A DNA stretch of 64,000 nt from Anaeromyxobacteraceae bacterium (GTDB lineage Bacteria > Myxococcota > Myxococcia > Myxococcales > Anaeromyxobacteraceae). Location of the stretch: NCBI GenBank assembly GCA_047602405.1, contig JASGHJ010000002.1, forward strand, positions 2,528,001-2,592,000. The letters run 5' to 3'. Made by a program: the position numbers and the translations under genes. The notes below the pieces were generated by a model that searched no databases, was not told the DNA's origin, and saw nothing but the letters and a program-made list of their open reading frames with translations. The first letter of the stretch is position 1. Each line of letters opens with the position of its first letter. This document shows positions 3,355-36,714 of the stretch, piece by piece.

Positions 3355-4739
3355 CTCCGTGCCTTCCTGGTCGCGGCGGCCTCGCCGGCCCTGCCGCGCC
3401 TGCCGGCCTCGCCGGGCCCCGGCGCGGGTCGGCCCGACCGCTGGGGCCGGGCGCGCTCGGTGCGCGCCCTCGAGAAGTTTCCGACCACGAGCCCGGGCCG
3501 GGCCGCCCGGAGCGCGCGCACGAGTGCCGCGATGCCGAGCGCGGGGCCCCGCCCGCCGCGGTCCGCGGCGATGGCCCAGTAGACGTCGGGATCGATGGCG
3601 AGCGGGCGGGTCTGGATCTGGTCGACGCCGGCGTCCGCGACGAGCGCGGCGAGCGCCTCGACCTCGCCCGCGCGATCCGTGACGCCGGGGAACGTGAGGA
3701 GGTTGAGCGCCACGTACGCGCCGCGCGCCTTCGCGGTCCGGATCGAGCGGAACACGTCGGCGAGGCCGTAGCCGGTGGGCCGGTAGTAGGCCCGGTAGAG
3801 GTCCTCGTGCGCCGAGTTGAGCGAGATGCGCACCGAGTCGAGCCCGGCGTCGCAGAGCTTCCCGAGCGCGTCGGGGAGCGAGCCGTTCGTGTTCGCGTGG
3901 ATCGAGCCCTTCGACGTTTCCGCACGCACGAGCCGGATCGCCCGCTCGAGCTCCTTCCAGCGCGTGAGCGGCTCGCCCTCGCAACCCTGGCCGAAGCTCA
4001 CCATCAGCTTCCCGCGGGCGCGGCGGAGGTGCCGGAGCGCGACCTCGGCCATCTCGGCCGCGGTGGGCGCGCGCGGGATGCGCTCGTGCGACGAGGGCGG
4101 CATCCCCTCCTGCGTCTCGGAGAGGCAGCCGACGCACGAGGCGTTGCACGAGGCCGACGACGGGATCGCCCCCTCGTCGCGCGCGTAGAAGGTGTTCTGC
4201 GCGGTGAAGCAGCGCCACTCGAGCGCGCAGCGCGCGAGCTGCCGGTAGATCGGGTTCGGCGTCTCGGCGAGCGTCCGCTCGACGAGCGCCGGCAGGTCCG
4301 AGGTCGAGTGCGACGCCGGGCTCCAGTGGCCGCGCCGGTCGGTGTGGAGCGCCCAGACCGCGGGGCCGTCCGGGCCGAGCGCCGCCGCGGTGTACGCCCA
4401 TTGCGGGAGCACCGGCGCCTCCGCGGCGGTCGCGAGCGGCGGGCGCGCGGCGGCGGGCAGGAAGGTGCGGGTGAAGCCGGGCGGCAGGGCTGCGCCCACC
4501 GCGTGCGGGACGAAGCGGCGCCGCCCGACCCGGGCCTCCCTGAGCACCACCTGCGCGCCGGTCCCGGGATCGATCCCGACGGGCCGGCGCCCCGGCAGGT
4601 ACGTGAGCGTCGCGCCCTCCGGCAGTGCGAGCGGCCGCTCCCGGGGGAGGAGCGTCTCGCCGCCCGAGCGGACGGCCGCGAGGAGGTCGGGGTGGTCGTA
4701 GACGACCCCGCGGTCGTCGGCGAAGAGGAGGCGCAGCAT
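3351..4739 (-). CDS. Radical SAM protein
   Basis: CxxxCxxC (CNASCVGC), [15 protein letters not shown]; stop overlaps the rlmI start (ATGA). Confidence 0.85.
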
Positions 4740-4896
4740 CGGTCGGCGGGGTCTTACCACGGAGGCTCGGGCTCACGAAGGTGGTGGCCGGTCTCGAGGG
4801 AAGCTGGACCCCACCCGCTGACAGCTTGAATTTCCTCGGGTTCCGGGCCTTCGCCCCCCGGCACCCCGATTGGACGGTCCGCCCGGCGTCCGGCCG

Positions 4897-4921
4897 GGAA
4901 TCTACCGGGCGGGCGGCTGTT
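4897..4921 (+). promoter_or_regulatory. Candidate ECF (SigR/SigH-type) autoregulatory promoter GGAAT-N17-GTT
   Basis: GGAAT at 4897-4901 and GTT at 4919-4921, about 110 bp upstream of a SigR/SigH-like sigma gene. Confidence 0.4.
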
Positions 4922-5032
4922 TCTCCCGGAAGAGCGGGGGGTTCGCTTGGCGCGGCGGCGGGGCGCAAGGTAGTAACGATCGATCGCGGCGCTGGAGTCC
5001 GCGCGGCAGTGCACGAGTCATCGGGGAACCTG

Positions 5033-5677
5033 ATGTTCGACCTTCGGCAGAACGACCTGACGCGCGAGGAGTTCGAGGCGCTGGCCCTGCGCCACCTCGA
5101 CCCGCTCTACTCGGCGGCGCTGCGTCTCACGAAGAACGACCGCGACGCGGAGGATCTCGTGCAGGACACGTTCCTGCGCGCCTACCGGTTCTTCGACAAG
5201 TTCGAGCGCGGCACGAACATCAAGGCCTGGCTCTTCAAGATCCTCACGAACACCTTCATCAACCGGTATCGCCGCTCCGTGAAGGAGCGCTCCATCGTCG
5301 AGGGTTCGGAGCGCGAGGCGGTGCACGAGCGCTTCGTCTCCCGGGACGCCGCCGACTACGCCGCGAACCCGGAGCAGTACTTCTTCGACCGCCTGCTCTC
5401 CGACGACGTGCTCCGCGCCGTCGACTCCCTGCCCATCGACTTCCGGATGGTCGTGATCCTCGCCGACCTGCAGGAGTTCTCCTACAAGGAGATCGCCGAG
5501 ATCCTGGACGTGCCGGTGGGCACCGTCATGAGCCGGCTCTACCGCGGGCGGCGCCTCCTGCAGAAGGCCCTCGCCTCCTACGCGGTCGACTCGGGCGTGG
5601 TCTCCGACGACGGCGCCGACGACGGCGCTCCCCTCGACCTCGATGCCTGGCGGAAGCGCAAGGGGCGCTCCGCCTGA
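5033..5677 (+). CDS. rpoE1: ECF sigma factor (SigR/SigH-like; positional counterpart of myxobacterial RpoE1)
   Basis: [50 protein letters not shown]; lies upstream of an anti-sigma and frzS. Confidence 0.85.
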
Positions 5678-5694
5678 ACGGGAACGACCGCGCC

Positions 5695-6510
5695 ATGTCG
5701 ATCGAACCCCTGAACGCCGCGATGGACTGCACCGAGCTCGAGCGCTCGGTGGACGCCTGGCTCGACGGCGAGCTCGACGACCGCGACCGCACCGAGGTCG
5801 ATCGTCACCTCGAGGCCTGCCCGCGCTGCCGCCCGCTCGCCGACGCGCGCGCCCGCCTCCGCCTCGCCACCCGCGCGAAGCTCAAGGAGGCCATGGGCCC
5901 CGGCGCCGCCGCAGGCGTCGCGCCGCCCGCGCTGCGCGCGCGCGTCGTCACCGCGCTCGCGAAGGAGCGCCGCCCGCTCTGGCGCCGCGTGCTCGCGCCC
6001 GTGCCCCTCGCGACGCTCGCCGCCTGCGCCGCCGGCGCGCTCGTCGTGATCGCGATGCGCCCCGACGACACGCTCCTCGAGGAGGCCATCGCGAAGCACC
6101 ACCGCGACCTCCCGCTCGAGGTCACCACCGCCTCGATGGCGGAGGCCACCCTGCCCGCCTGGTTCACCGGCAAGCTCGACTTCAAGCCCACCCCGCCCAA
6201 GCTCGAGGACGGCGGTGCGCGCATGATCGGTGCGCGGCTCTCCCACCTCCGCGAGTGGCCGGCGGCCTACTTCCGGTACGCGCTCCCGCGCGGCAACGCC
6301 GGGCTCTTCATCGTGGACGACCCGTCCGGCAAGTTCGGGACGGCCGGCCGCGAGGTCCAGGTGGGTCCGGACACGGTCCGGCTCGCGAACGCGAAGGGCT
6401 ACAACGTCGCGGTCTGGCGCCAGGACGAGATCGTCTACTCGCTCGTCTCGGATCTCGACGAGGGCGACCTCTTCAAGCTCGTGCGGGCCGCCCGGGCCGA
6501 TCACCGCTAG
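5695..6510 (+). CDS. Zinc-binding (zf-HC2) transmembrane anti-sigma factor
   Basis: HLEACPRC (HxxxCxxC), one TM segment, periplasmic domain; directly follows the ECF sigma. Confidence 0.85.
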   Translation: MSIEPLNAAMDCTELERSVDAWLDGELDDRDRTEVDRHLEACPRCRPLADARARLRLATRAKLKEAMGPGAAAGVAPPALRARVVTALAKERRPLWRRVLAPVPLATLAACAAGALVVIAMRPDDTLLEEAIAKHHRDLPLEVTTASMAEATLPAWFTGKLDFKPTPPKLEDGGARMIGARLSHLREWPAAYFRYALPRGNAGLFIVDDPSGKFGTAGREVQVGPDTVRLANAKGYNVAVWRQDEIVYSLVSDLDEGDLFKLVRAARADHR

Positions 6511-14853: not shown

Positions 14854-14950
14854 GAGGTCCCGATGAAAGGCACTCCCCACGAGGGCCGTCAAGCGCGAGG
14901 ACCGATGATTTGCGGCCCGCCCGCGGGTACATCCCGGAGGGAGACCCACC

Positions 14951-15979
14951 ATGACCGCCACCGCCGCCGCCGTCCGCGACCTCGAGGCCCACCGGGAGGT
15001 GCTCACCGGGCACTGCTACCGGATGCTCGGCTCCCCCGCGGAGGCCGACGACGCCGTCCAGGAGACGATGATCCGGGCGCTCCGCGCCATCGACCGGTTC
15101 GACGGCCGGGCGTCGCTGCGCACCTGGCTCTACCGGATCGCGACCAACGTCTGCCTCGACCTCCTCGCCGACCGCGGGCGCCGCGAGCGCCCGGTGGGGC
15201 TCGGCCCCGCCGGCACGGTCGACGACACGCTCGTGGAGCGGCCGCGGACGCACTGGCTCGAGCCCGTGCCCGACCTGCAGGCCGTCCCCGCCGACGGCGA
15301 CCCCGCCGAGCGCGCCGCGCTCCGCCAGAGCATCCGGCTCGCCTTCGTGGCGGCGCTGCAGCACCTCCCCGCCCGGCAGCGGGCCGCCCTCCTCCTCGCC
15401 GACGTGCTCGGCTGGAGCGCGGCGGAGATCGCGGAGGCCCTCGCGACGACCGTCGCCGCGGTGAACTCGGCGCTGCAGCGGGCGCGCGCGACCCTCGCCG
15501 AGCGCGCGCCGGCCGTGGAGGGCGCCGGCCGGATCGGGCCCGAGGACGAGGCGCTCCTCGCCCGCTACGTGGAGCTCTTCGAGCGCTACGACATCGAGGC
15601 GCTCGCGCGCCTGCTCTGCGAGGACGCGGTGCTCTCGATGCCGCCGTACACGCTCTGGCTCCAGGGCCCGCAGGACGTGGCGGCGTGGATGCTCGGGCGC
15701 GGGATCGGCTGCCTCGGCTCGCGGCTCGTACCCACCCGCGCGAACGGGCTGCCGGCGTTCGGCCAGTACCGGCGCACCCCCGGCGGAGGCCACCGCGCCT
15801 GGTCGCTCGTCGTGCTGGAGCTCCGGGGCGGGAAGATCGGGGCGATGACGCACTTCCTCGACGTGGAGCACCTGTTCCCGCGGTTCGGGCTGCCGCTCGA
15901 GCTCGCGCCCCGGCCGGAGGCCGCCGGGGAGCACGCCGGGCGGGGCGCGGAGGTGACCTACATCGTCCCCTCGACCTGA
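14951..15979 (+). CDS. ECF sigma factor with C-terminal SnoaL-like extension (SigG-like)
   Basis: [49 protein letters not shown]. Confidence 0.88.
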
Positions 15980-16022
15980 GGGGCGTTGACGCGACCCCGC
16001 GACCGGCCCCACGCTCGGTCGC

Positions 16023-25825: not shown

Positions 25826-27578
<1,753 letters not shown>

Positions 27579-27635
27579 GCGGCCCCGGGTCGGGAGCGGC
27601 TTGACCGTCCCCGCGTTCGGGCGTCTCGTCACGGC

Positions 27636-28712
27636 ATGCCGGGTGACGATCACAGGCCGGAGGACGAGGTCGAGAAGCTGCTCGAGGCCTCCGCGGCCGC
27701 GTTCGAGGCGGGCGAGCTCGAGGAGGCGCTCGCGCGCGCCGAGGACGCGCTCGCCCTCGAACCCCGCTCGGTCGCCGCGCTCCACCACCGCGCCGCCGCC
27801 CTCGCCGAGCTCGGCCAGATCGAGGAGGCCCAGGCCGCCTACGAGAAGGCGCTCGTCCCGGGGAAGGACGACCCGGAGCTCCTGCTCGGCGCCGCCGACT
27901 TCCTCGTGAACGTGCAGGCGGGCGACGACGACGCCGGCGACCCGGACCGCCTCGAGCGCGCCCTCGAGCTCGCGCGCAAGGGCGGCAAGCTCGCCACGAA
28001 GGCCGGGGACCACCCGCTCGCCGGCGAGCTCGCCATCGTGCAGGCGGCCGCGCTGAACCAGCTCGGGCGGAACGCCGAGGCGCTCGAGCGGCTCCTCCGC
28101 GGCGACGAGACGTCCCCCGACACGTGGCTCGAGCGCGCCGCCGCGCTCTTCGAGCTCTGCCGCTTCGACGAGGCGCGCGGCGCCGCCGAGCGCGCCGAGG
28201 CGCTCGCCCCCGAGGCCGGGTGGGCTCAGCACCTGCTCGGCCTCCTCGCCGAGCGCCGCGGCGACGAGGCGGAGGCGAAGCGGCGCTTCCGCCGCGCGCG
28301 CGACCTCGACCCGGACGCGTTCCCGCTCGCCATCGGGCTCTCGCACAAGGAGTTCGAGCGCGTCGTCGAGGAGGCGCTCGAGGAGATCCCGGAGGAGGTC
28401 CGCCGCTACCTCGCGAACGTGCCGATCACCGTCGAGGACCTCCCCGCCGACCACGACCTCCTCGGCGCCGACCCGCCGCTCTCGCCCGGCATCCTCGGGC
28501 TGTTCCGCGGCGCACCCTACGGCGCGAAGGCCGCCATCGGCGATCCGTGGAGCCACCTCCCCTCCTCGATCGCGCTCTACCAGCGGAACCTCGAGCGCTA
28601 CGCCCGCGACCGAGACGAGCTCATCCAGGAGATCGGCGTCACGCTCGTCCACGAGGTCGGCCACTTCCTCGGCCTCGACGAGGACGAGCTGTGGGAGCGG
28701 GGGCTGGGGTAG
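27636..28712 (+). CDS. TPR protein with C-terminal zincin-like metallopeptidase domain
   Basis: TPR repeats, ILGLFRG, HEVGHFLG (HExxH). Confidence 0.85.
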   Translation: MPGDDHRPEDEVEKLLEASAAAFEAGELEEALARAEDALALEPRSVAALHHRAAALAELGQIEEAQAAYEKALVPGKDDPELLLGAADFLVNVQAGDDDAGDPDRLERALELARKGGKLATKAGDHPLAGELAIVQAAALNQLGRNAEALERLLRGDETSPDTWLERAAALFELCRFDEARGAAERAEALAPEAGWAQHLLGLLAERRGDEAEAKRRFRRARDLDPDAFPLAIGLSHKEFERVVEEALEEIPEEVRRYLANVPITVEDLPADHDLLGADPPLSPGILGLFRGAPYGAKAAIGDPWSHLPSSIALYQRNLERYARDRDELIQEIGVTLVHEVGHFLGLDEDELWERGLG

Positions 28713-28733
28713 GCACCGGCGCCGAACGACAAA

Positions 28734-28805
28734 CCCCTCCCCTCGCTGGGGCGAGGAGAGGGGCGGGAGCAAGCTGCCGGGGAGGGGTGCGCCGAGCACC
28801 CCTCC
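28734..28805. terminator. Two GC-rich hairpins between convergent genes
   Basis: CCCCTCCCCTCGC / GCGAGGAGAGGGG and GGAGGGGTGC / GCACCCCTCC. Confidence 0.5.
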
Positions 28806-28811
28806 AGCAAG

Positions 28812-30314
28812 TCAGTTGTCGAGCTCCGCCTCGTCGGCCGGGGCCGAGGTCGAGTCGGGGTACGGGCGCCAGCGGGCCTTCACGATGGTCGTGCCGGGGG
28901 TCACGGCCGCGAGGAAGGCCTCGAGGGTCATGCCGCCCTCGGCGAGGTCGTTGAGCGAGGCCTTCGAGAGGTCGACCACGATGCCCGCGATGGTGACCGA
29001 GGACGCCGTCTTCGCCGTCACGAGGCCGCGGAGGAAGGCGCGATTGGCGGGCTTGAAGTCCTTGAGCTCGAAGCGGGTCGCGTTGACCGCGGTGCCGTCC
29101 TTCGACATCGTGCCGCGGACCTCGACGGCGGTGCCGACCGTGGCGGCGGCGACGCCGAGGCCCTGGGTGGACGGGGTCACGTTCACCTTGAGGCCGAGGA
29201 CGGTGATGGTGCCGGCCGTCTCGTCCCTCGCCTCGACGTTCGCCTCGATGCGGACCGACGCCTTGAACTGGATCTTCGAGGCCGCGAGCACGCCATCCTG
29301 GCCGACCGCGCCCTCGACCTCGACCTTCACGCCCTCCACGAGGTCGTCCGCCGTGCCGCCCACGTAGCTCGTGCTCGCCGAGTACGAGACCTTGGTGTCG
29401 CCGATGCTGAAGCCGGTGAGGGTGAGGTTCGTGACGATGCCCTCGACCTCGTGCTCGCCCTGGTGCTCGGACTCGTCCTCGCGCTCGTCCTCCTGCTTCA
29501 CGGAGAGGGCGAACAGCGCGCCGGCGTCGTTCTTCGACCCGTCGGTCTTCACCTCGAGGAAGTCGTCGACGGCGATGACCGGGGCGGGCGTGATCTTCGA
29601 GACGTCGATCGCGAGCTCGGACGTGCCGCCCTTCGAGAAGGAGAGGTCGACGGTGGTGCCGCTCACGGCCACGACCCAGCCCTTCACCTCCTGGTCCTCG
29701 CCCTGCCGGTCGTCGCGGACGCGGACCATCGTGGCCGAGAGGCCGCCCTTGCCGTCGCCGTGGCCGGAGACCTCGACGCGGGTGCCGGCCGTGAGCGAGG
29801 TCCTGTCGACCTTGTCGCCGTGACGGTCGACGACGTTCGTGTCGTCGTCCATCGAGACGTGGTGGCCCAGGACGTCGAGCGAGTTCGCGTCGTGCGCCTC
29901 GACCTCGCCCTCGACCTCGTGCTCGAACTCGACCTCGGCGGCCTCGGCCTCGCCGCCGGAGGAGCCTTCGGAGAGCGCGCCCGCGGCGGTGCCGGCGGCG
30001 CGGACGGTCACGATCATGCCGGTGACGAGGTACTTCGAGAGATCGGCGTTCGAGGCGAGGGTGACGGAGGCGACCGCCTCGTCCGGCATCGAGAGCCTCG
30101 CGCCGGCGACGCGGTAGGTGGTGCCGTTCACGGTGAAGCCGGCGGCGGTGATGGCGGAGATGGCGCCGCGGGAGGTGGGGCCGGTGGCGGCCGGGCCGTT
30201 GCCGTCGCCCTTCGGGCCGGCGGAGCCGCCGCAGGCGGCGACGAAGGAGGAGGCGACGAGGGCGAGGAGCAGCTTCGAGAGGGTGTTCCTGGAGGGCTGC
30301 GTCTTGGAGATCAT
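28812..30314 (-). CDS. Lipoprotein with multiple DUF5666-like beta repeats
   Basis: Lipobox VAAC; repeated G.V......VEV.G...A..I units. Confidence 0.8.
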   Translation of the reverse strand: MISKTQPSRNTLSKLLLALVASSFVAACGGSAGPKGDGNGPAATGPTSRGAISAITAAGFTVNGTTYRVAGARLSMPDEAVASVTLASNADLSKYLVTGMIVTVRAAGTAAGALSEGSSGGEAEAAEVEFEHEVEGEVEAHDANSLDVLGHHVSMDDDTNVVDRHGDKVDRTSLTAGTRVEVSGHGDGKGGLSATMVRVRDDRQGEDQEVKGWVVAVSGTTVDLSFSKGGTSELAIDVSKITPAPVIAVDDFLEVKTDGSKNDAGALFALSVKQEDEREDESEHQGEHEVEGIVTNLTLTGFSIGDTKVSYSASTSYVGGTADDLVEGVKVEVEGAVGQDGVLAASKIQFKASVRIEANVEARDETAGTITVLGLKVNVTPSTQGLGVAAATVGTAVEVRGTMSKDGTAVNATRFELKDFKPANRAFLRGLVTAKTASSVTIAGIVVDLSKASLNDLAEGGMTLEAFLAAVTPGTTIVKARWRPYPDSTSAPADEAELDN

Positions 30315-30341
30315 GGGTGGGTCCGTCCTTTCAGCCGGGAC

Positions 30342-30368
30342 ACACCGATCGCTGCGGCGATGCGACAC
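30342..30368 (-). promoter_or_regulatory. Candidate ECF promoter GTGTCGCA-N13-CGGTGT facing the DUF5666 gene
   Basis: Same bipartite motif and spacing as 30461-30487. Confidence 0.55.
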
Positions 30369-30460
30369 GCCTCCGAAGGGGCGTCTTTTCGAACCGTGGC
30401 CGCGCCCATCTGCGAGAGAATGAGGTGCGGAGAAGAGGTCGTGCCGTGTGCGACACGGGG

Positions 30461-30487
30461 GTGTCCCACGGCGCGCGCGAGCGGTGT
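30461..30487 (+). promoter_or_regulatory. Candidate ECF promoter GTGTCCCA-N13-CGGTGT facing the sigma/anti-sigma/caspase operon
   Basis: Same bipartite motif and spacing as 30342-30368. Confidence 0.55.
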
Positions 30488-30510
30488 AACCGCCACAGGA
30501 GAGCGGGACC

Positions 30511-31029
30511 TTGGCCGACGGCCCGAGCAGAGCCGCAGCGCTGTACCGCACCTACGGCCCCGCCGTTTACCGGCGGTGCCTGAAGCTGCTCCGCGACCCC
30601 GAGGTGGCGAAGGACGCCACGCAGGACGTGTTCATGAAGCTCGTGAAGGACATGGACCGGCTCACCGACGAGCACGCCCTGCCGTGGATCTACCGGGTCG
30701 CGACGAACCACTGCCTCAACCTGCTCCGCTCCCGCCGCCGCCGCGGGGAGGAGGTCGACGTGGCCGACGACGCGCTCGACCTCGCCCCCGCCCGGCCCCA
30801 GGGCTCGGCCGCCGGCGACGACCACTCCCCTTACCCGGCGCGCGCGCTCGCGGCCTCGGTGCTCGCGCAGTTCGACGAAGGGACGCAGGCGGTCGCGGTC
30901 GGCATCCTGGTCGACGGGATGGAGCAGGAGGAGCTCGCGGGTGCCCTCGGCATCTCGCGCAAGACCGTCCAGCGGCGCCTCGAGCGGTTCCTCGAGCGCG
31001 CGCGCGCCTTCCTGTCGGGAGCCGACTAG
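30511..31029 (+). CDS. ECF sigma factor
   Basis: AKDATQDVFMKL, WIYRVATNHCLNLLR, QEELAGALGISRKTVQRRL; TTG start after an AGGAG RBS. Confidence 0.88.
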   Translation: MADGPSRAAALYRTYGPAVYRRCLKLLRDPEVAKDATQDVFMKLVKDMDRLTDEHALPWIYRVATNHCLNLLRSRRRRGEEVDVADDALDLAPARPQGSAAGDDHSPYPARALAASVLAQFDEGTQAVAVGILVDGMEQEELAGALGISRKTVQRRLERFLERARAFLSGAD

Positions 31030-31779
31030 ATGACCGCCTCGCCCGGGACCCCCTGCCCCTCCGACCTCGCCCTCGAGGCGCACCTCCTCGACCCCGCGGC
31101 CTCGAAGCTCGGGCCCCACCTCGCCGCCTGCGCCGCCTGCGCCGCGCGCCTCCACGCGATGGAGCGCCAGGGCGAGGACTTCCGGCGCTTCGTCTACCCG
31201 GTCACCGTGGAGAAGGTGGAGGAGGCCGCCGGGAAGTCCCGCCGCCGCTCCTTCTGGCTCCTCGCGCCGGTGCCGATCTTCGCGGCGCTGCTCGCGGTCG
31301 TGATGCTCCGGCCTGCAGTCCAGCCCCCGGGCGACGACTACACCGGCCTCAAGGGCGCGGCCGGCGGGGTCGGGCTCACCGTGTTCACGCCGGGGAGCGC
31401 CGGCGCGACGCCGCTCGCCGACGGCGCGCACCTCGGCGCCTCCGCCGCGCTCCGGTTCCGCGTCCGCACCGCCGAGCCGTGCCGCCTGCTCCTCTTCTCC
31501 GTCGACGCGACGGGCGCGGTCTCCCGGCTTCACACCGAGGAGGGCGCGCTCCCCCCCGGGCAGCACGACCTCGAGGGCGGCGCGGTGCTCGACGGCAAGG
31601 CCGGACCGGAGCGGTTCTACGCGCTCTGCGCAGGTGGCCTCGCGTGGCCCGACGTGGAGGCGCTCGCGAAGGGCGCCGCCGGCGGCGGCCCGGACGCCGT
31701 GCGCCGGGCCGGTGCGCTCGGCGGCACCGCCGCGAAGCTCGCCCAGGCGAGCGTGCTCGTCGAGAAGGACGCTCCGTGA
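31030..31779 (+). CDS. zf-HC2 transmembrane anti-sigma factor with periplasmic (DUF4384-like) domain
   Basis: HLAACAAC, TM FWLLAPVPIFAALLAVVML; start abuts the sigma stop. Confidence 0.75.
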   Translation: MTASPGTPCPSDLALEAHLLDPAASKLGPHLAACAACAARLHAMERQGEDFRRFVYPVTVEKVEEAAGKSRRRSFWLLAPVPIFAALLAVVMLRPAVQPPGDDYTGLKGAAGGVGLTVFTPGSAGATPLADGAHLGASAALRFRVRTAEPCRLLLFSVDATGAVSRLHTEEGALPPGQHDLEGGAVLDGKAGPERFYALCAGGLAWPDVEALAKGAAGGGPDAVRRAGALGGTAAKLAQASVLVEKDAP

Positions 31780-33293
31780 ACCGGATCCTCCTCGCCCTCG
31801 GCCTCGCCGCCGCGGCGCTCGCCGCGCCCGCCCCGGCCCGCGCGGCCGCCGCGCGCTTCGCGGTGGTCGCCGGCGTCAACGAGGGCGCACCCGGCCGGCC
31901 GAAGCTCTGGTTCGCCGAGAAGGACGCCGAGCGGTTCCGCCGCGCGCTCGTCGAGCTCGGCGGGTTCGAGGACGACCGGGTCACGGTCGTGCCGGGCGGC
32001 CGCGCCGACGCCTTCCGCGACGCGCTCGCCACCACCGAGGCCAAGATCGCCGCCGCGCGGAAGCGGGGCGAGCAGGCCCTGCTCGTCGTCTACTACTCCG
32101 GCCACGCCGGCCCGGGTGGCCTCGAGTTCGGCCCCGCCCGCGTCGCCTTCGACGAGCTCCGCGCGCTCGTGGCCGCCTCCGCCGCCGAGACCCGCATCGT
32201 CATCGTGGACGCCTGCGAGGCCGGCGCGCTCACCCAGGTGAAGGGCGCCTCGCCCGCCCCGAGCGTCGACTTCGCCCTCCCCTCGCAGGAGGTGAAGGGC
32301 ACCGCGTTCCTCGCCTCGACCGCGGTCGGCGAGGCCGCGCAGGAGTCCGGCCGCCTCGGCGGCAGCTTCTTCACGCACCACCTCGAGGTCGCGATGCGCG
32401 GCGCGGGCGACGCGGACGACGACGGCGTCGTGACGCTGTCGGAGGCGTTCCGCTACACGGCGTCCCGCACCGTCGCCGAGACCGCCGGCACGACCCAGGG
32501 GCCCCAGCACCCGACGTACGACTTCCGGATGTCCGGCCGCGGCGACGTGGTCCTCTCCGACCTGCGCCGCGCGGAGGCCCACCTGCGCGTCCCCGCCGAC
32601 CCCGGCGCGCTCTACGTCCTGAAGGGCCCGAAGGGGCTCGTCGCCGAGGTGCAGGCCGGCCCCGCGCCGCTGCGGCTCGCGATGCCCGCGGGCCGCTACG
32701 ACGTCGAGCGCCGCGCGCGCAACGGCCGCGCCTCGGGCGGCGTCTCGCTCGGCAAGGGCGACGACGCCACCCTCCCCCAGCTCGAGCCGACCCGCTACGA
32801 GGTCGCGCGCTCGAAGGGCGGCCCGCTGCCGACCGAGAGCTTCGCGGGCATGGGCGTGCACGCGATCTCGCTGCCGGGCGGCGGCTTCGCCCCGGCGCTG
32901 CGCGGCGGCGTGCGCCGCGAGGTCGGGCCGGCGGGGCTCGTCGTCTCCCTCGAGTACGCGGCGCGCGACGTGACCGACCAGGGGAAGCGCTACGCCTACT
33001 CGCGGATGGGGGCCTCGGCCGCGCTCGTGCTCCCGGTGTTCGGCGGCTCGAAGCTCGTCGAGGCCGGCGTGTTCGGCGGCTACGGCTACGCGACGCAGAC
33101 CTGGAAGGCCGACCGCCGCTCCTTCAGCGCGGGCGACGTGACCGGCGGCTTCGCGCTGCGGGCGTCGGTGCCGGTCGGGCGGCTGCGCGCCGCGGTGGAC
33201 GCCGAGGGCGGCGTCCGCACGTTCCAGCTCGATGGCGCCCGCACGACGCGCCCGGCGGCCTCGGCCGCGCTCGTCATCCTGTACGGGTTCTGA
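31776..33293 (+). CDS. Exported caspase-family (C14, metacaspase-like) peptidase with a C-terminal beta-rich domain
   Basis: Signal peptide, YYSGHA and IVDAC His/Cys dyad, GGSFFTHHL, DADDDGVVTLSE, terminal ILYGF; GTGA overlap with the anti-sigma. Confidence 0.88.
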   Translation: MNRILLALGLAAAALAAPAPARAAAARFAVVAGVNEGAPGRPKLWFAEKDAERFRRALVELGGFEDDRVTVVPGGRADAFRDALATTEAKIAAARKRGEQALLVVYYSGHAGPGGLEFGPARVAFDELRALVAASAAETRIVIVDACEAGALTQVKGASPAPSVDFALPSQEVKGTAFLASTAVGEAAQESGRLGGSFFTHHLEVAMRGAGDADDDGVVTLSEAFRYTASRTVAETAGTTQGPQHPTYDFRMSGRGDVVLSDLRRAEAHLRVPADPGALYVLKGPKGLVAEVQAGPAPLRLAMPAGRYDVERRARNGRASGGVSLGKGDDATLPQLEPTRYEVARSKGGPLPTESFAGMGVHAISLPGGGFAPALRGGVRREVGPAGLVVSLEYAARDVTDQGKRYAYSRMGASAALVLPVFGGSKLVEAGVFGGYGYATQTWKADRRSFSAGDVTGGFALRASVPVGRLRAAVDAEGGVRTFQLDGARTTRPAASAALVILYGF

Positions 33294-33296
33294 ACC

Positions 33297-34730
33297 ATGA
33301 GCCTCCTCGTCCGCCACGATCCGCTCGTGCTGAGCGTAGCGCCCGCGAAGCGGGCGCGGAGTCGAAGCACGCCCTTCGCCTTCGCGCTCGTCCTCCTCGC
33401 CGCCTGCGGCGACGGCGTCTACACGACGCGCGGGCTGCCCTCGACCGGCGGCCCTGGCGACGGCAACACCTGCGACGCGAACCAGGTCTTGTGCGCCGAC
33501 GACCCCACCCGCACCTGCCGCCAAGAGACAGACGCGAGATGTGGATCCAGCTGCGACCCGTGCCCTGACGGGCCCTCCGGGACCCAGAAGGTCTGCAACC
33601 TCGGGCGGGCGCCCGACGGTCACGGACAGTGCGGCTACGCCTGCGCCGACGGCTTCTTCGCGTGCGCCACCGGCTGCTGCGGCACGACCGCGGTCGCGGC
33701 GGGCGGGGACTCGAGCTACGCGATCGTCTCGGACGGCACCGTCCACGCCTGGGGCGCGAACGGGTCGGGCCAGCTCGGCGACGGGTCGACGATCGACCGG
33801 AAGGCGCCCGTGCTCGTGAAGCTCGCGGCCGGCGCGGCGGCCTCGGGGATCGCCGCGGGCCCGACGCACGCCTGCGCCATCGTGGGCGGCGGCGCGGTCC
33901 GCTGCTGGGGGTCGAACACGAGCGGCGAGGTCACGGGCGCGGCGACGAGCGGCGCCATCTCGACCCCGACGGTCACACCGGTCACCGCGAACGCCGTGGC
34001 GGTGGCCGCGGGCGGCGCGCACACCTGCGCCGTGCTCGACACCGGGGCCGTCACCTGCTGGGGCGCCGCCGCGCAGACGGCGGGCGCGGCCTCGATCACC
34101 GGCGCGACCGCGATCGCCGCGGGCGCCGGCCACACCTGCGCGCTCGTCGCGGGCGGCGCCGTGAAGTGCTGGGGCGCGAACGACGCAGGACAGCTCGGCG
34201 GGACACCGGCGAACGGCGTCGCGACGCCGATCGCGGCGGGCATCGAGAAGCTCGCCGCGTACGGCGACCACACCTGCGCCGCCACCCGGAACACGAATGG
34301 TGACAGCAAGATCGTGGATGGGCTCCGCTGCTGGGGCGCGGTGCTCGGGGCGAGCTGGCAGTTCGCGACGCCGTTCCAGCCCACGCCCGCCATCCCGATG
34401 AAGGACGCCTCGCAGTCCAGCATCCGCAAGCCCGTGGTGTCCGTCGCGACCGGGCGCACCCAGGTCTGCCTCTTCGCAGAGCTCGCGCCCGCGTGCCTCG
34501 GCCCCGAGAACGCCCTCGGCCAGCTCGGCGGAGCGGCCATCGTGCCCGAGCCCTCGACCGTCTCCGCCGCGGGCGGCGCGACCGACCTCGCGACCGGCGA
34601 CGATCACGCCTGCGCCATCCTCCCCTCCGGTGCGCTCCGCTGCTGGGGCGACAACTCGAGCGGCCAGCTCGGCGACGACACGAAGATCACCCCGGACGTC
34701 GGGATCCTGAAGGCGCCGAAGGGCACCTGA
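33297..34730 (+). CDS. Lipoprotein with Cys-rich N-terminus and RCC1 repeats
   Basis: LLAAC lipobox; repeated AGxxHTCA...V.CWG.N..GQLG. Confidence 0.85.
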   Translation: MSLLVRHDPLVLSVAPAKRARSRSTPFAFALVLLAACGDGVYTTRGLPSTGGPGDGNTCDANQVLCADDPTRTCRQETDARCGSSCDPCPDGPSGTQKVCNLGRAPDGHGQCGYACADGFFACATGCCGTTAVAAGGDSSYAIVSDGTVHAWGANGSGQLGDGSTIDRKAPVLVKLAAGAAASGIAAGPTHACAIVGGGAVRCWGSNTSGEVTGAATSGAISTPTVTPVTANAVAVAAGGAHTCAVLDTGAVTCWGAAAQTAGAASITGATAIAAGAGHTCALVAGGAVKCWGANDAGQLGGTPANGVATPIAAGIEKLAAYGDHTCAATRNTNGDSKIVDGLRCWGAVLGASWQFATPFQPTPAIPMKDASQSSIRKPVVSVATGRTQVCLFAELAPACLGPENALGQLGGAAIVPEPSTVSAAGGATDLATGDDHACAILPSGALRCWGDNSSGQLGDDTKITPDVGILKAPKGT

Positions 34731-34881: not shown

Positions 34882-36714
34882 TCACACCCGCTGCGAGCGG
34901 TCGCGCCCGAACTCCGCACCGACCCACTTCCTCCCCTTCACGATCCACTCGATGGTGTCCGGCACGCGCCCGAAGACCTCGGCGATGCCGCCGTGAACCA
35001 CCACGAGGTGGTGGAACGGGCAGAGCGGGAGGATGTTCCACGGCTCGTCGGGCCCGCCGCGGCTCCTCCACCAGACATGGTGACCGTGCTTCGCCCGGCC
35101 GCTGCACCCGGGCGCCTGGCACCTCGACATGAGGCTGCGCTGCTTCTGGGACAGGGTCCGCGGTGGCACGACCTCCGCGCCCCAGACGGCGTTGAAGTGG
35201 CGCGCGAGGTCGCCGTAGCAGGCGCCGAGCTCGCGCTTCAGGTCGTTCCGGGCCTTGCGGGCCGCCCGGATCGCGAGCTCGACGAGGTCCGCCACCCCCT
35301 TCGGGACCCAGACGTCGAGCTCCCGCCGCGCACACATCTGCGCATCGAGCTTCGCCGCGACGGCCTCCCGGACCTCGACGACCGTGAGCCGCTGCGCGTC
35401 CGCCGCGAGCGTCGCCCGCTCGGCCTCGGGGAGCGCCGCGACGAGCGCGAGCTTCGAGTAGGAGAGGCCCTCCTTTCGGGCCCGCTGCAGCGCGGGGCTG
35501 TCCCAGACCTTCAGCTCGAGCGCCGCGCGCGCCTCGACCGTCCGCGCCGCGAGGCCGAGGCGCTCCTTCGCGTAGTGACGGAAGTCGACGAAGCCCGCCC
35601 GGCGATGCCCCTGGGTGCCCTTCACGATCGCGGCACAGTAGCCGACGACGTCGTCCCAGGCCTTCCGCTCCTGGCACAGCCCGACGAGCGTCGCGTCGAG
35701 CTCCTCCGCGGTCGCGTACTCGAGCGGGACGACCTCGGGCGCCGCGACCTCGGAGTACCCCTCGAGCTTCGCCCAGTCGTCGGTCACGAGCTCGGACTGG
35801 TACTCCGAGACCTCCCGCCTCGTCGGCTGCTCGTGCGTCGGCCACGCGTCGGCGGTCGCCTCGCCCGAGGCCGGGTCGGCGGCTCCTGCGACCGGACCGG
35901 CCTCCAGGGGAACGAGGTCGGCCTCGTCGATGGGATGCTCCGAGAGGAACTCCTGCGCGAGCGCCTCGAGGTGCGCGGTGCGCAGCGGGGTCTCGAGGAG
36001 CTCCTTCGCGAGCTCGAAGGCGACGTCGAGGTCCTTCCGGTCCTCCGCGCCGAGCGGGACGCGCAGACGGACGTAGACCTCCTCCTCCTGCGTCGCCTCG
36101 GGTCCGGCCCCGGCGCCCGCGGAGGCCCCACCCTCCGCGTGCGCCGCGTCGTGCAGCGCGAGCCTCACCGCGCGCTCGAGCCTGCGCACGGTCCAGCGCC
36201 GGGCGCGCTCGACCCACACCGCCTCGGCGTCGCCCACCGCGACCCGGAGGACCGTGAGCGCGGCCCGCGGCGTCACCTGCCCGGCGTGCACCGCGGCGCG
36301 GAGGAGCGGCCGCTTCTCGAGCCCGCGCGCGAGCTGGATCGCCACCTGCGTCGTGCGGCGCTTCATCCCCAGGATGTTCTCTGCGTAGTCGCACACGTTC
36401 GCGAAGCCGAGCTGCGCGAGCCAGCGTCCCTCGGCGAGCGCCGAGAGGAGACGCCCGATCGCGAGGTCGACCGCGCTCGCCATCTGCGCGGACCACGCGA
36501 GGACGCGCTCATGCTCCTCGACGGCATCCGGGGTGCCCTCGATCCGGCGGAGCGCGGCGTGCGTGAGCGTGGGCAGGTCGACGCGTGGCGCGCGCAGGTC
36601 CGGGCGCCCGTCGAGCGGGCGCTTCGGCCCCTGTGGCGCCTCCGGGGCGCCGGCCTCGGGAGCCTTGGGCTCCACTGCCGTGGCCTCGGCGACGATGGGT
36701 TCCACCGCGTTCAT
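34882..36714 (-). CDS. HNH endonuclease with DUF222-like helical N-terminal region
   Basis: C-terminal CQAPGC...HGHHVWWRSRGGPDEPWNILPLCPFHH. Confidence 0.8.
   Translation of the reverse strand: MNAVEPIVAEATAVEPKAPEAGAPEAPQGPKRPLDGRPDLRAPRVDLPTLTHAALRRIEGTPDAVEEHERVLAWSAQMASAVDLAIGRLLSALAEGRWLAQLGFANVCDYAENILGMKRRTTQVAIQLARGLEKRPLLRAAVHAGQVTPRAALTVLRVAVGDAEAVWVERARRWTVRRLERAVRLALHDAAHAEGGASAGAGAGPEATQEEEVYVRLRVPLGAEDRKDLDVAFELAKELLETPLRTAHLEALAQEFLSEHPIDEADLVPLEAGPVAGAADPASGEATADAWPTHEQPTRREVSEYQSELVTDDWAKLEGYSEVAAPEVVPLEYATAEELDATLVGLCQERKAWDDVVGYCAAIVKGTQGHRRAGFVDFRHYAKERLGLAARTVEARAALELKVWDSPALQRARKEGLSYSKLALVAALPEAERATLAADAQRLTVVEVREAVAAKLDAQMCARRELDVWVPKGVADLVELAIRAARKARNDLKRELGACYGDLARHFNAVWGAEVVPPRTLSQKQRSLMSRCQAPGCSGRAKHGHHVWWRSRGGPDEPWNILPLCPFHHLVVVHGGIAEVFGRVPDTIEWIVKGRKWVGAEFGRDRSQRV

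Follow-up and report, generated by a model that had tools for sequence, protein, structure and literature searches.

A three-gene module that may signal across the cell envelope was analyzed in a 64,000-nt window of DNA from Anaeromyxobacteraceae bacterium (GCA_047602405.1, contig JASGHJ010000002.1, positions 2,528,001 to 2,592,000 of the forward strand; coordinates below are relative to this window). On the plus strand, a 172-amino-acid (aa) extracytoplasmic function (ECF) sigma factor with a TTG start (30511..31029) is followed by a 249-aa anti-sigma with an ATG start (31030..31779) and a 505-aa exported C14 caspase-like protease (31776..33293). Comparison with homologues suggested that these genes probably form an envelope switch in which the protease would process itself and then cut its own anti-sigma at K108-G109, acting as a self-releasing site-1 protease. 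An earlier note on this DNA had proposed the caspase as the site-1 protease for this anti-sigma, and this proposal gained support from a common Lys-Gly (K-G) site, the decay of this site upon loss of the protease and a joint switch between Lys and Arg in the two proteins.

The K-G dipeptide occurs at three unrelated and exposed places: the anti-sigma linker (K108-G109; 31351..31356, plus strand), the loop after the catalytic Cys of the protease (K156-G157; 32241..32246, plus strand) and the linker above the predicted barrel (K347-G348; 32814..32819, plus strand). From their conservation and position, these are candidate sites for site-1 cleavage, for autoprocessing and for release or autoinhibition, respectively. 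Among 111 anti-sigma homologues, the site was K-G in 109 and R-G in 2, at a median of 12 residues outside the membrane; although the model places it in low-confidence coil, no column of the alignment other than its Gly is invariant. The post-Cys site had Lys in all 111 protease homologues and Gly in 110, and the junction site, between a beta-sandwich and the barrel, had Lys or Arg in 108 and Gly in 105. The background K-G frequency over a comparable span had a mean of 0.016 to 0.026 and a maximum of 0.16, and none of the four other K-G dipeptides of the protease is conserved. In further homologues, K-G was detected in 120/120 ActD-like proteins, and the post-Cys and junction sites were detected in 120/120 and 102/120 proteins, each 120-member set being largely one subfamily. 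Representatives of anti-sigma clusters at 50% identity had KG in 141 and RG in 4 of 148 cases (P0246 and P0066 were left out, and the search profile contains the K-G motif). The anti-sigma linker and post-Cys sites both lie in predicted disorder, with the predicted local distance difference test (pLDDT) score of the protease model falling below 50 from K156 onward, at the start of the post-Cys loop. This loop is the place of processing in caspases and type II metacaspases (PMC4357240).

Two natural controls bear on the relation between the anti-sigma site and the protease. In the first, 30 anti-sigma loci of the same clade were compared, one of which was dropped at a contig end, and loci were scored as protease-less if no protease gene was present in at least 1.4 kb downstream. 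All of the protease-linked anti-sigmas (14/14) had K-G, while the 15 protease-less anti-sigmas comprised 2 with K-G, 4 with R-G and 9 in which the site was lost by deletion of the linker, by replacement with Thr or Gln or by loss of the Gly. A tree built without the linker columns placed the protease-less anti-sigmas in three lineages, two of which had lost the site outright and one of which had a degenerate site. The second control was a divergent subfamily of 37 loci, 33 with an anti-sigma, in which the homology of the sites was confirmed and the residues were read by eye. The anti-sigma and the post-Cys loop both had Arg in 26 of these 33 loci and both had Lys in 5, with 1 discordant and 1 ambiguous locus. 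The Lys pairs were nested as one group inside the Arg group, which amounts to about two concerted changes. In this Arg-type subfamily (L202-L264, alignment A4), the protease ends in hydrophobic helices or in nothing rather than in a barrel, and at many Myxococcaceae loci it is transcribed divergently from the sigma and anti-sigma genes. Four protease-less pairs (L180, L182, L226 and L227) are followed by a PAS histidine-kinase-like gene, with a PII-like gene in two of them, which is perhaps a rewired input.

The protease belongs to clan CD family C14, with a His-Cys dyad on a caspase fold (Peptidase_C14, 30.4 bits versus a cut-off of 21.4). The motifs described in the earlier note were all present, namely an N-terminal hydrophobic signal, SGHA (H110), DAC (C147), the loop DADDDGVVTLSE (residues 212-223) and the terminal residues ILYGF. 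A signal-like N terminus was detected in 101/104 homologues. H110 and C147 were invariant (111/111), as were the S1 residues D50, S108 and D145 (111/111); all of these align with residues of plant metacaspase 4, D50 on helix 1 with its CVND and D145, two positions ahead of the Cys, with its DSC. Equivalent Asp/Ser residues give TbMCA2 its basic P1 specificity (PMC4357240), and the window protease was predicted to be specific for Lys/Arg through a C14B-type basic P1 pocket. Foldseek matches of the caspase fold were caspase-7, MALT1 and caspase-9. Sequence matches favored metacaspases, whereas fold matches favored caspase-7/MALT1, the class-defining strands being the extra strands 7-8 versus the dimer sheet. 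The DxDxDG loop was near-invariant, matches to EF-hand proteins were weak and Ca binding by this loop is putative.

In a model of the protease (pLDDT, 90), the caspase domain is followed by a beta-sandwich and then by a series of eight long strands. These strands span residues 353-504 at a pLDDT of >90 and end in YGF; there was no Pfam match in this region, and its fold matches were Ail, OmpA and OmpX. The beta-strand-rich C terminus pointed out previously is hence predicted, from the model, to be an eight-stranded outer-membrane barrel of the OmpA/Ail/OmpX type. As an eight-stranded barrel keeps both of its ends in the periplasm, the catalytic domain is presumably periplasmic and tethered to the outer membrane by this small barrel. 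At two other loci (L208 and L212), the caspases have a lipoprotein N terminus plus a barrel-like end, and an extra K-G separates their lipid anchor from the catalytic domain.

The window anti-sigma itself had no Pfam family match, while in the family alignment DUF4384 was detected in 72/111 and zf-HC2 in 20/111 homologues. In its model (pLDDT, 87), a helical zinc domain leads into a single transmembrane helix, beyond which a disordered linker connects to an immunoglobulin (Ig)-like sandwich. The zinc-binding HxxxCxxC motif is formed by H30, C34 and C37, the single transmembrane helix follows RRR and the Ig-like DUF4384-type domain occupies residues 114-247. The motif was present in 94/111 anti-sigmas and a hydrophobic segment in 109/111. 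Weak PDB matches were obtained to the N-domains of ChrR, RsiW and DdvA, and a fold search with the C-domain gave generic Ig-like matches only (best Z, 8.4). This architecture, with HxxxCxxC, one transmembrane helix and a gene at +1, is that of a zinc-binding (ZAS) membrane anti-sigma; inhibition of the sigma by the 249-aa protein is putative, the anti-sigma type being assigned from the architecture. The 758-aa protein P0246 contains five stretches matching the anti-sigma profile. The sigma fits the ECF type, being a short sigma-70 protein with regions 2 and 4 only; Sigma70_r2 and TIGR02937 (71.7 bits; cut-off, 42.9) were above their cut-offs, and region 4 matches were below cut-off.

Conservation of the gene set was examined in 80 loci fetched via the caspase domain, 72 of which had at least 1.5 kb of upstream DNA. 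Sigma and anti-sigma genes were directly upstream of the caspase gene in all 72 informative loci, which is not a chance arrangement, so that the gene-neighborhood survey suggested in the earlier note found the three genes to be co-conserved. Six close caspase copies were present in this genome, all preceded by sigma and anti-sigma genes. Several of the five other trio copies (G000 C2:2355, C2:1977904, C2:3026574, C2:2386498 and C1:990833) are flanked by different lipoprotein-like genes, and one has a long repeat-plus-barrel C terminus. The two lipoprotein genes that had been grouped with the trio were variable among loci, and a fixed system of five genes was rejected. The gene for the 477-aa RCC1-repeat lipoprotein (33297..34730, plus strand; RCC1/RCC1_2 in Pfam, N-terminal part Cys-rich), a clade-specific accessory gene, was found in 27/27 close-clade loci with both flanks versus 0/23 other loci. 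By position, it was directly downstream in 34/38 close-clade loci, divergent upstream in 3 and further off in 1, and it was absent from 28 other loci (0/28). The DUF5666 gene was found in 10/27 close-clade loci, up- or downstream and in either orientation, and in 0/23 others. A crude lipobox rule classified the first downstream gene as lipoprotein-like in 37/42 close loci and 14/28 other loci. As RCC1 is clade confined and DUF5666 variable, the invariant core consists of three genes with exchangeable lipoproteins; the role of ligand-binding partner given to the RCC1 protein in the earlier note, based on co-location in the close clade only, is a guess. The K-G dipeptide was also considered as a shedding site in the two lipoproteins and was rejected, since K-G there is not conserved.

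Matches to the anti-sigma family were present in 206/243 good-quality genomes sampled from the phylum, with weak matches included and with one unpublished genome (G242) in the sample, and the family comprised 4,438 clusters at 50% identity (E < 1e-30). One locus, L126, was from Fibrobacteria. Protease matches reached about 20 copies per genome, with 17 to 22 in G169, G198 and G215, where most protease matches were paired with an anti-sigma match. The extra clusters obtained in atlas searches were only Myxococcota hypothetical proteins and DUF5666.

A bipartite motif was first noticed before DUF5666 genes and was then rebuilt from sigma upstream regions alone, giving the consensus TG(T/G)C(C/A)C-N15-GGTGTC before 43/56 close-clade sigma genes. 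It scored before 14/14 DUF5666 genes tested; of 200 shuffles, at most 2 reached the score for 10 of these genes and 5 to 12 did so for the other 4. In the window, the best plus-strand site of the intergenic region (TGTCCC-N15-GGTGTA, 30462..30488) faces the sigma gene ahead of its ribosome-binding site, and the best minus-strand site (TGTCGC-N15-GGTGTG, 30367-30341; 0/200 shuffles) faces the DUF5666 gene ∼53 nt before its start. The top site of a genome-wide promoter-matrix scan precedes a sister sigma gene. No shared promoter motif was found in 48 more distant loci, and no sigma-70 promoter was found in the region. The presence of a shared motif before both genes supports autoregulation and DUF5666 as an output, and the sigma is likely to autoregulate its operon, with the DUF5666 lipoprotein as a likely output. 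The promoter-like motif thus speaks for the output role previously given to DUF5666, but the gene is a variable accessory and not a constant part of the module.

The proposed switch would start at the outer membrane, where the trigger would be clustering or dimerization, possibly Ca dependent, through the co-encoded lipoprotein and the variable end of the barrel; this is the weakest step and is doubtful. The K156 site would be processed first, activating the enzyme, and a cut at K347 would then release it from the barrel. Such a release would allow a barrel-tethered enzyme to reach a site ∼12 residues from the inner membrane. The freed protease would cut the anti-sigma at K108 as the site-1 step, and RseP-type site-2 cleavage would follow; two RseP-family genes with TIGR00054 matches above cut-off are present in the genome. 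The freed sigma would then transcribe the operon that encodes it, producing positive feedback, and also the DUF5666 lipoprotein gene. We infer the order K156, K347, K108, site-2 cleavage and feedback.

Several observations weigh against this switch. In one protease-linked anti-sigma (L220), Met replaces the Lys beside an intact protease. One protease-less lineage retains K/R-G in 6/9 members, and the genomes of these mostly hold a protease module elsewhere. The loss control consists of three events only, and about two changes, labeled by eye, make up the K/R co-switch, with kin that are not independent. The residue at the junction is Arg in many cases in which both other sites have Lys (98/120); as it varies independently, it is not tightly coupled to them. 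In the divergent subfamily, many proteases without a barrel or any anchor keep the junction site, so that autoinhibition fits this site as well as release does. All six paralogues carry K-G, and insulation among them is unexplained. The genome-wide promoter-matrix scan gave no enrichment (42 sites versus ∼80 expected), and the genome-wide regulon sought with this matrix was rejected.

All of the motif evidence fits equally well with constitutive maturation, in which the protease cuts the anti-sigma K-G in export or assembly regardless of any signal, the pieces stay together and a signal later separates them. Signal-independent self-cleavage with associated products has been described for other anti-sigmas (PMC11506125). 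The variability of the barrel end and the additional conserved site just above the barrel instead suggest that a sensor regulates release, and constitutive maturation was judged unlikely. Conservation of the K-G site cannot tell cleavage from binding, being compatible with both, and the anti-sigma Lys could occupy S1 as a bait or inhibitor in a FecA-FecR-like trans-periplasmic clamp, with general proteases doing the cutting. Loss of the motif along with the partner is also expected of a binding site, and insertion of Lys/Arg in S1 is a known device of self-inhibition in clan CD (PMC4357240). However, docking of this kind is improbable given the invariance of His and Cys (111/111), the small P1' Gly common to all three sites, which is typical of a scissile bond, and the position of K108, which is close to the inner membrane and a long way from a domain tethered by the barrel. 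It is very improbable that the sigma merely switches on the protease as an output or effector, acting in autolysis, defense-type cell death or surface processing, and that the anti-sigma site is incidental: an autolytic role has been proposed for M. xanthus metacaspases (PMC3501461) and a Haliangium PCaspase that adjoins a sigma is lethal to cells (bioRxiv 2023.06.23.546230), but such a role leaves the near-invariance of the anti-sigma K-G, its decay without the protease and its co-switch to Arg unexplained, and the enzyme is exported, can reach about 20 copies in a genome and has lipoproteins, not defense genes, as the neighbors seen.

The module is real and widespread and, judged from sequence, would be a variant of proteolytic ECF control. 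In the DegS/RseA/RseP and PrsW/RsiW systems, the site-1 cut is made in the periplasmic part and the site-2 cut by RseP; unlike in these cases of regulated intramembrane proteolysis, the site-1 enzyme of the window would be a caspase-fold cysteine protease fused to an outer-membrane part. In the FecA/FecR/FecI system, an outer-membrane partner is encoded with the sigma and anti-sigma. The window barrel is, in contrast, eight-stranded, with no TonB-dependent transducer and no FecR domain, and in Pfam searches the latter was absent from all 111 anti-sigmas. The nearest mechanistic parallel, by analogy, is DdvS/DdvA of M. xanthus, an ECF sigma with a zinc-binding single-pass anti-sigma for which a caspase-fold site-1 step was proposed before RseP and whose truncated form is a cleavage substrate of RseP in that species (PMC11506125). 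There, the TPR-CHAT part belongs to the anti-sigma and, in the accessible part of that source, its cleavage is unproven, whereas the window module has a separate C14 gene on a predicted barrel and a 249-aa anti-sigma with a small DUF4384 periplasmic domain. Caspase-fold proteases that cut a sigma-binding protein are also found in Craspase (Csx29/Csx30/RpoE), in which some Csx30 C-domains are DUF4384 (bioRxiv 2022.08.17.504292), and in PCaspase/PCc-sigma (bioRxiv 2023.06.23.546230). As described in these sources, both are cytoplasmic, RNA- or cA3-triggered, CRISPR-linked defense systems of the TPR-CHAT type, whereas the window protease is predicted to be exported and its module envelope-spanning; C14 was matched in 60/61 protease homologues and weak CHAT in 1/61.

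The earlier note had allowed that similar clusters may be annotated in myxobacteria, and a sigma-metacaspase operon was noted in 2012 without a mechanism. Sigma-70/metacaspase operons were listed for M. xanthus DK1622, Anaeromyxobacter, Haliangium, Sorangium, Ralstonia and Fibrobacter and contain an ECF sigma, a hypothetical protein (often with one transmembrane helix), a metacaspase and often a lipoprotein (Asplund-Samuelsson 2012, PMC3501461). Matched by gene order rather than sequence, these are almost certainly the same module, but in the accessible part of that source the middle gene is not called an anti-sigma, no barrel or cleavage motif is noted and the interpretation leans to cell death. 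The ECF216 group resembles the window in its occurrence in Myxococcales, its zinc-finger, one-helix anti-sigma at +1 and its nearby EF-hands; it differs, on comparison by text description alone, in that the part consulted mentions no caspase and calls the promoter not conserved (PMC7826278). The trio module was not described in the accessible parts of PMC8999054 and bioRxiv 2025.11.14.688446. A literature search, mostly without subscription papers, turned up no account of an anti-sigma being cut by an exported caspase that is a separate protein, which does not establish its absence from print.

The gene order at one locus (L154, G062:C1:3799200-3808900) resembles that of the M. xanthus act operon: genes for a GGDEF protein, a sigma-54 activator and an epimerase-acetyltransferase are followed, at the actD/actE positions, by a pair of genes for an anti-sigma homologue and a caspase, with all K/R-G sites present. 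This anti-sigma homologue lacks the zinc motif and there is no sigma gene; L157 is likewise without a sigma match. In contrast to the act operon, the window has no actABC upstream, with sigma and DUF5666 genes there instead. Gronewold and Kaiser reportedly described a timing phenotype for actD and the following gene of the act operon. Anti-sigma homologues are annotated as ActD-like, and since the same label is also used for caspases, the gene hit by the actD mutant is unverified. No description of actD or actE was found in the accessible parts of PMC4880591, PMC9765219, PMC4048283, PMC11980068 and PMC8844925. We tentatively suggest that the module represents a large family of receptor-proteases in the outer membrane, present in multiple copies, each with a variable sensor at the surface or in the barrel, and that these enzymes are initiator-caspase-like in their activation, free themselves at Lys/Arg-Gly, traverse the periplasm and are dedicated to site-1 cleavage of their own anti-sigmas, which would make the switch self-amplifying; the ActD/ActE-position genes timing Myxococcus development would be one such pair.

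The arrangement of the genes in the window agreed with the tight coupling reported earlier. The sigma TAG abuts the anti-sigma ATG at 31030, a GTGA overlap (31776-31779) leads into the protease gene and a 3-bp gap (ACC) separates the latter from the RCC1 ATG at 33297. The divergent DUF5666 gene (28812..30314, minus strand) encodes a 500-aa lipoprotein with four Pfam DUF5666 repeats and the lipobox VAAC28. A longer open reading frame (ORF) from GTG 30551 was rejected, as it would overlap the sigma gene and bury the lipobox. A terminator-like hairpin lies 3' of the DUF5666 gene (28733..28764, minus strand) and is weak evidence on its own, with 1 hairpin found and 1.3 yielded by shuffles. Convergent with the DUF5666 gene is a TPR plus zincin-like metallopeptidase gene (27564-28712, plus strand) adjoining groEL (25826-27487). 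An ORF of 610 aa (34882-36714, minus strand), which matches HNH weakly at its C terminus (E, 0.076), is convergent with the RCC1 gene and is possibly mobile. Two more ECF-sigma matches were detected in the window at ∼4600-6500 and 14900-16000; a weak anti-sigma match accompanies the first.

If the proposed switch is correct, it would represent a new class of site-1 protease starting at the outer membrane. The commonest myxobacterial caspase homologues would be given a concrete, nonlethal signaling role with exact cleavage sites, and a mechanism would be on offer for the last genes of the act operon, which are unexplained. Bacterial caspases would thereby gain a signaling job across the cell envelope.

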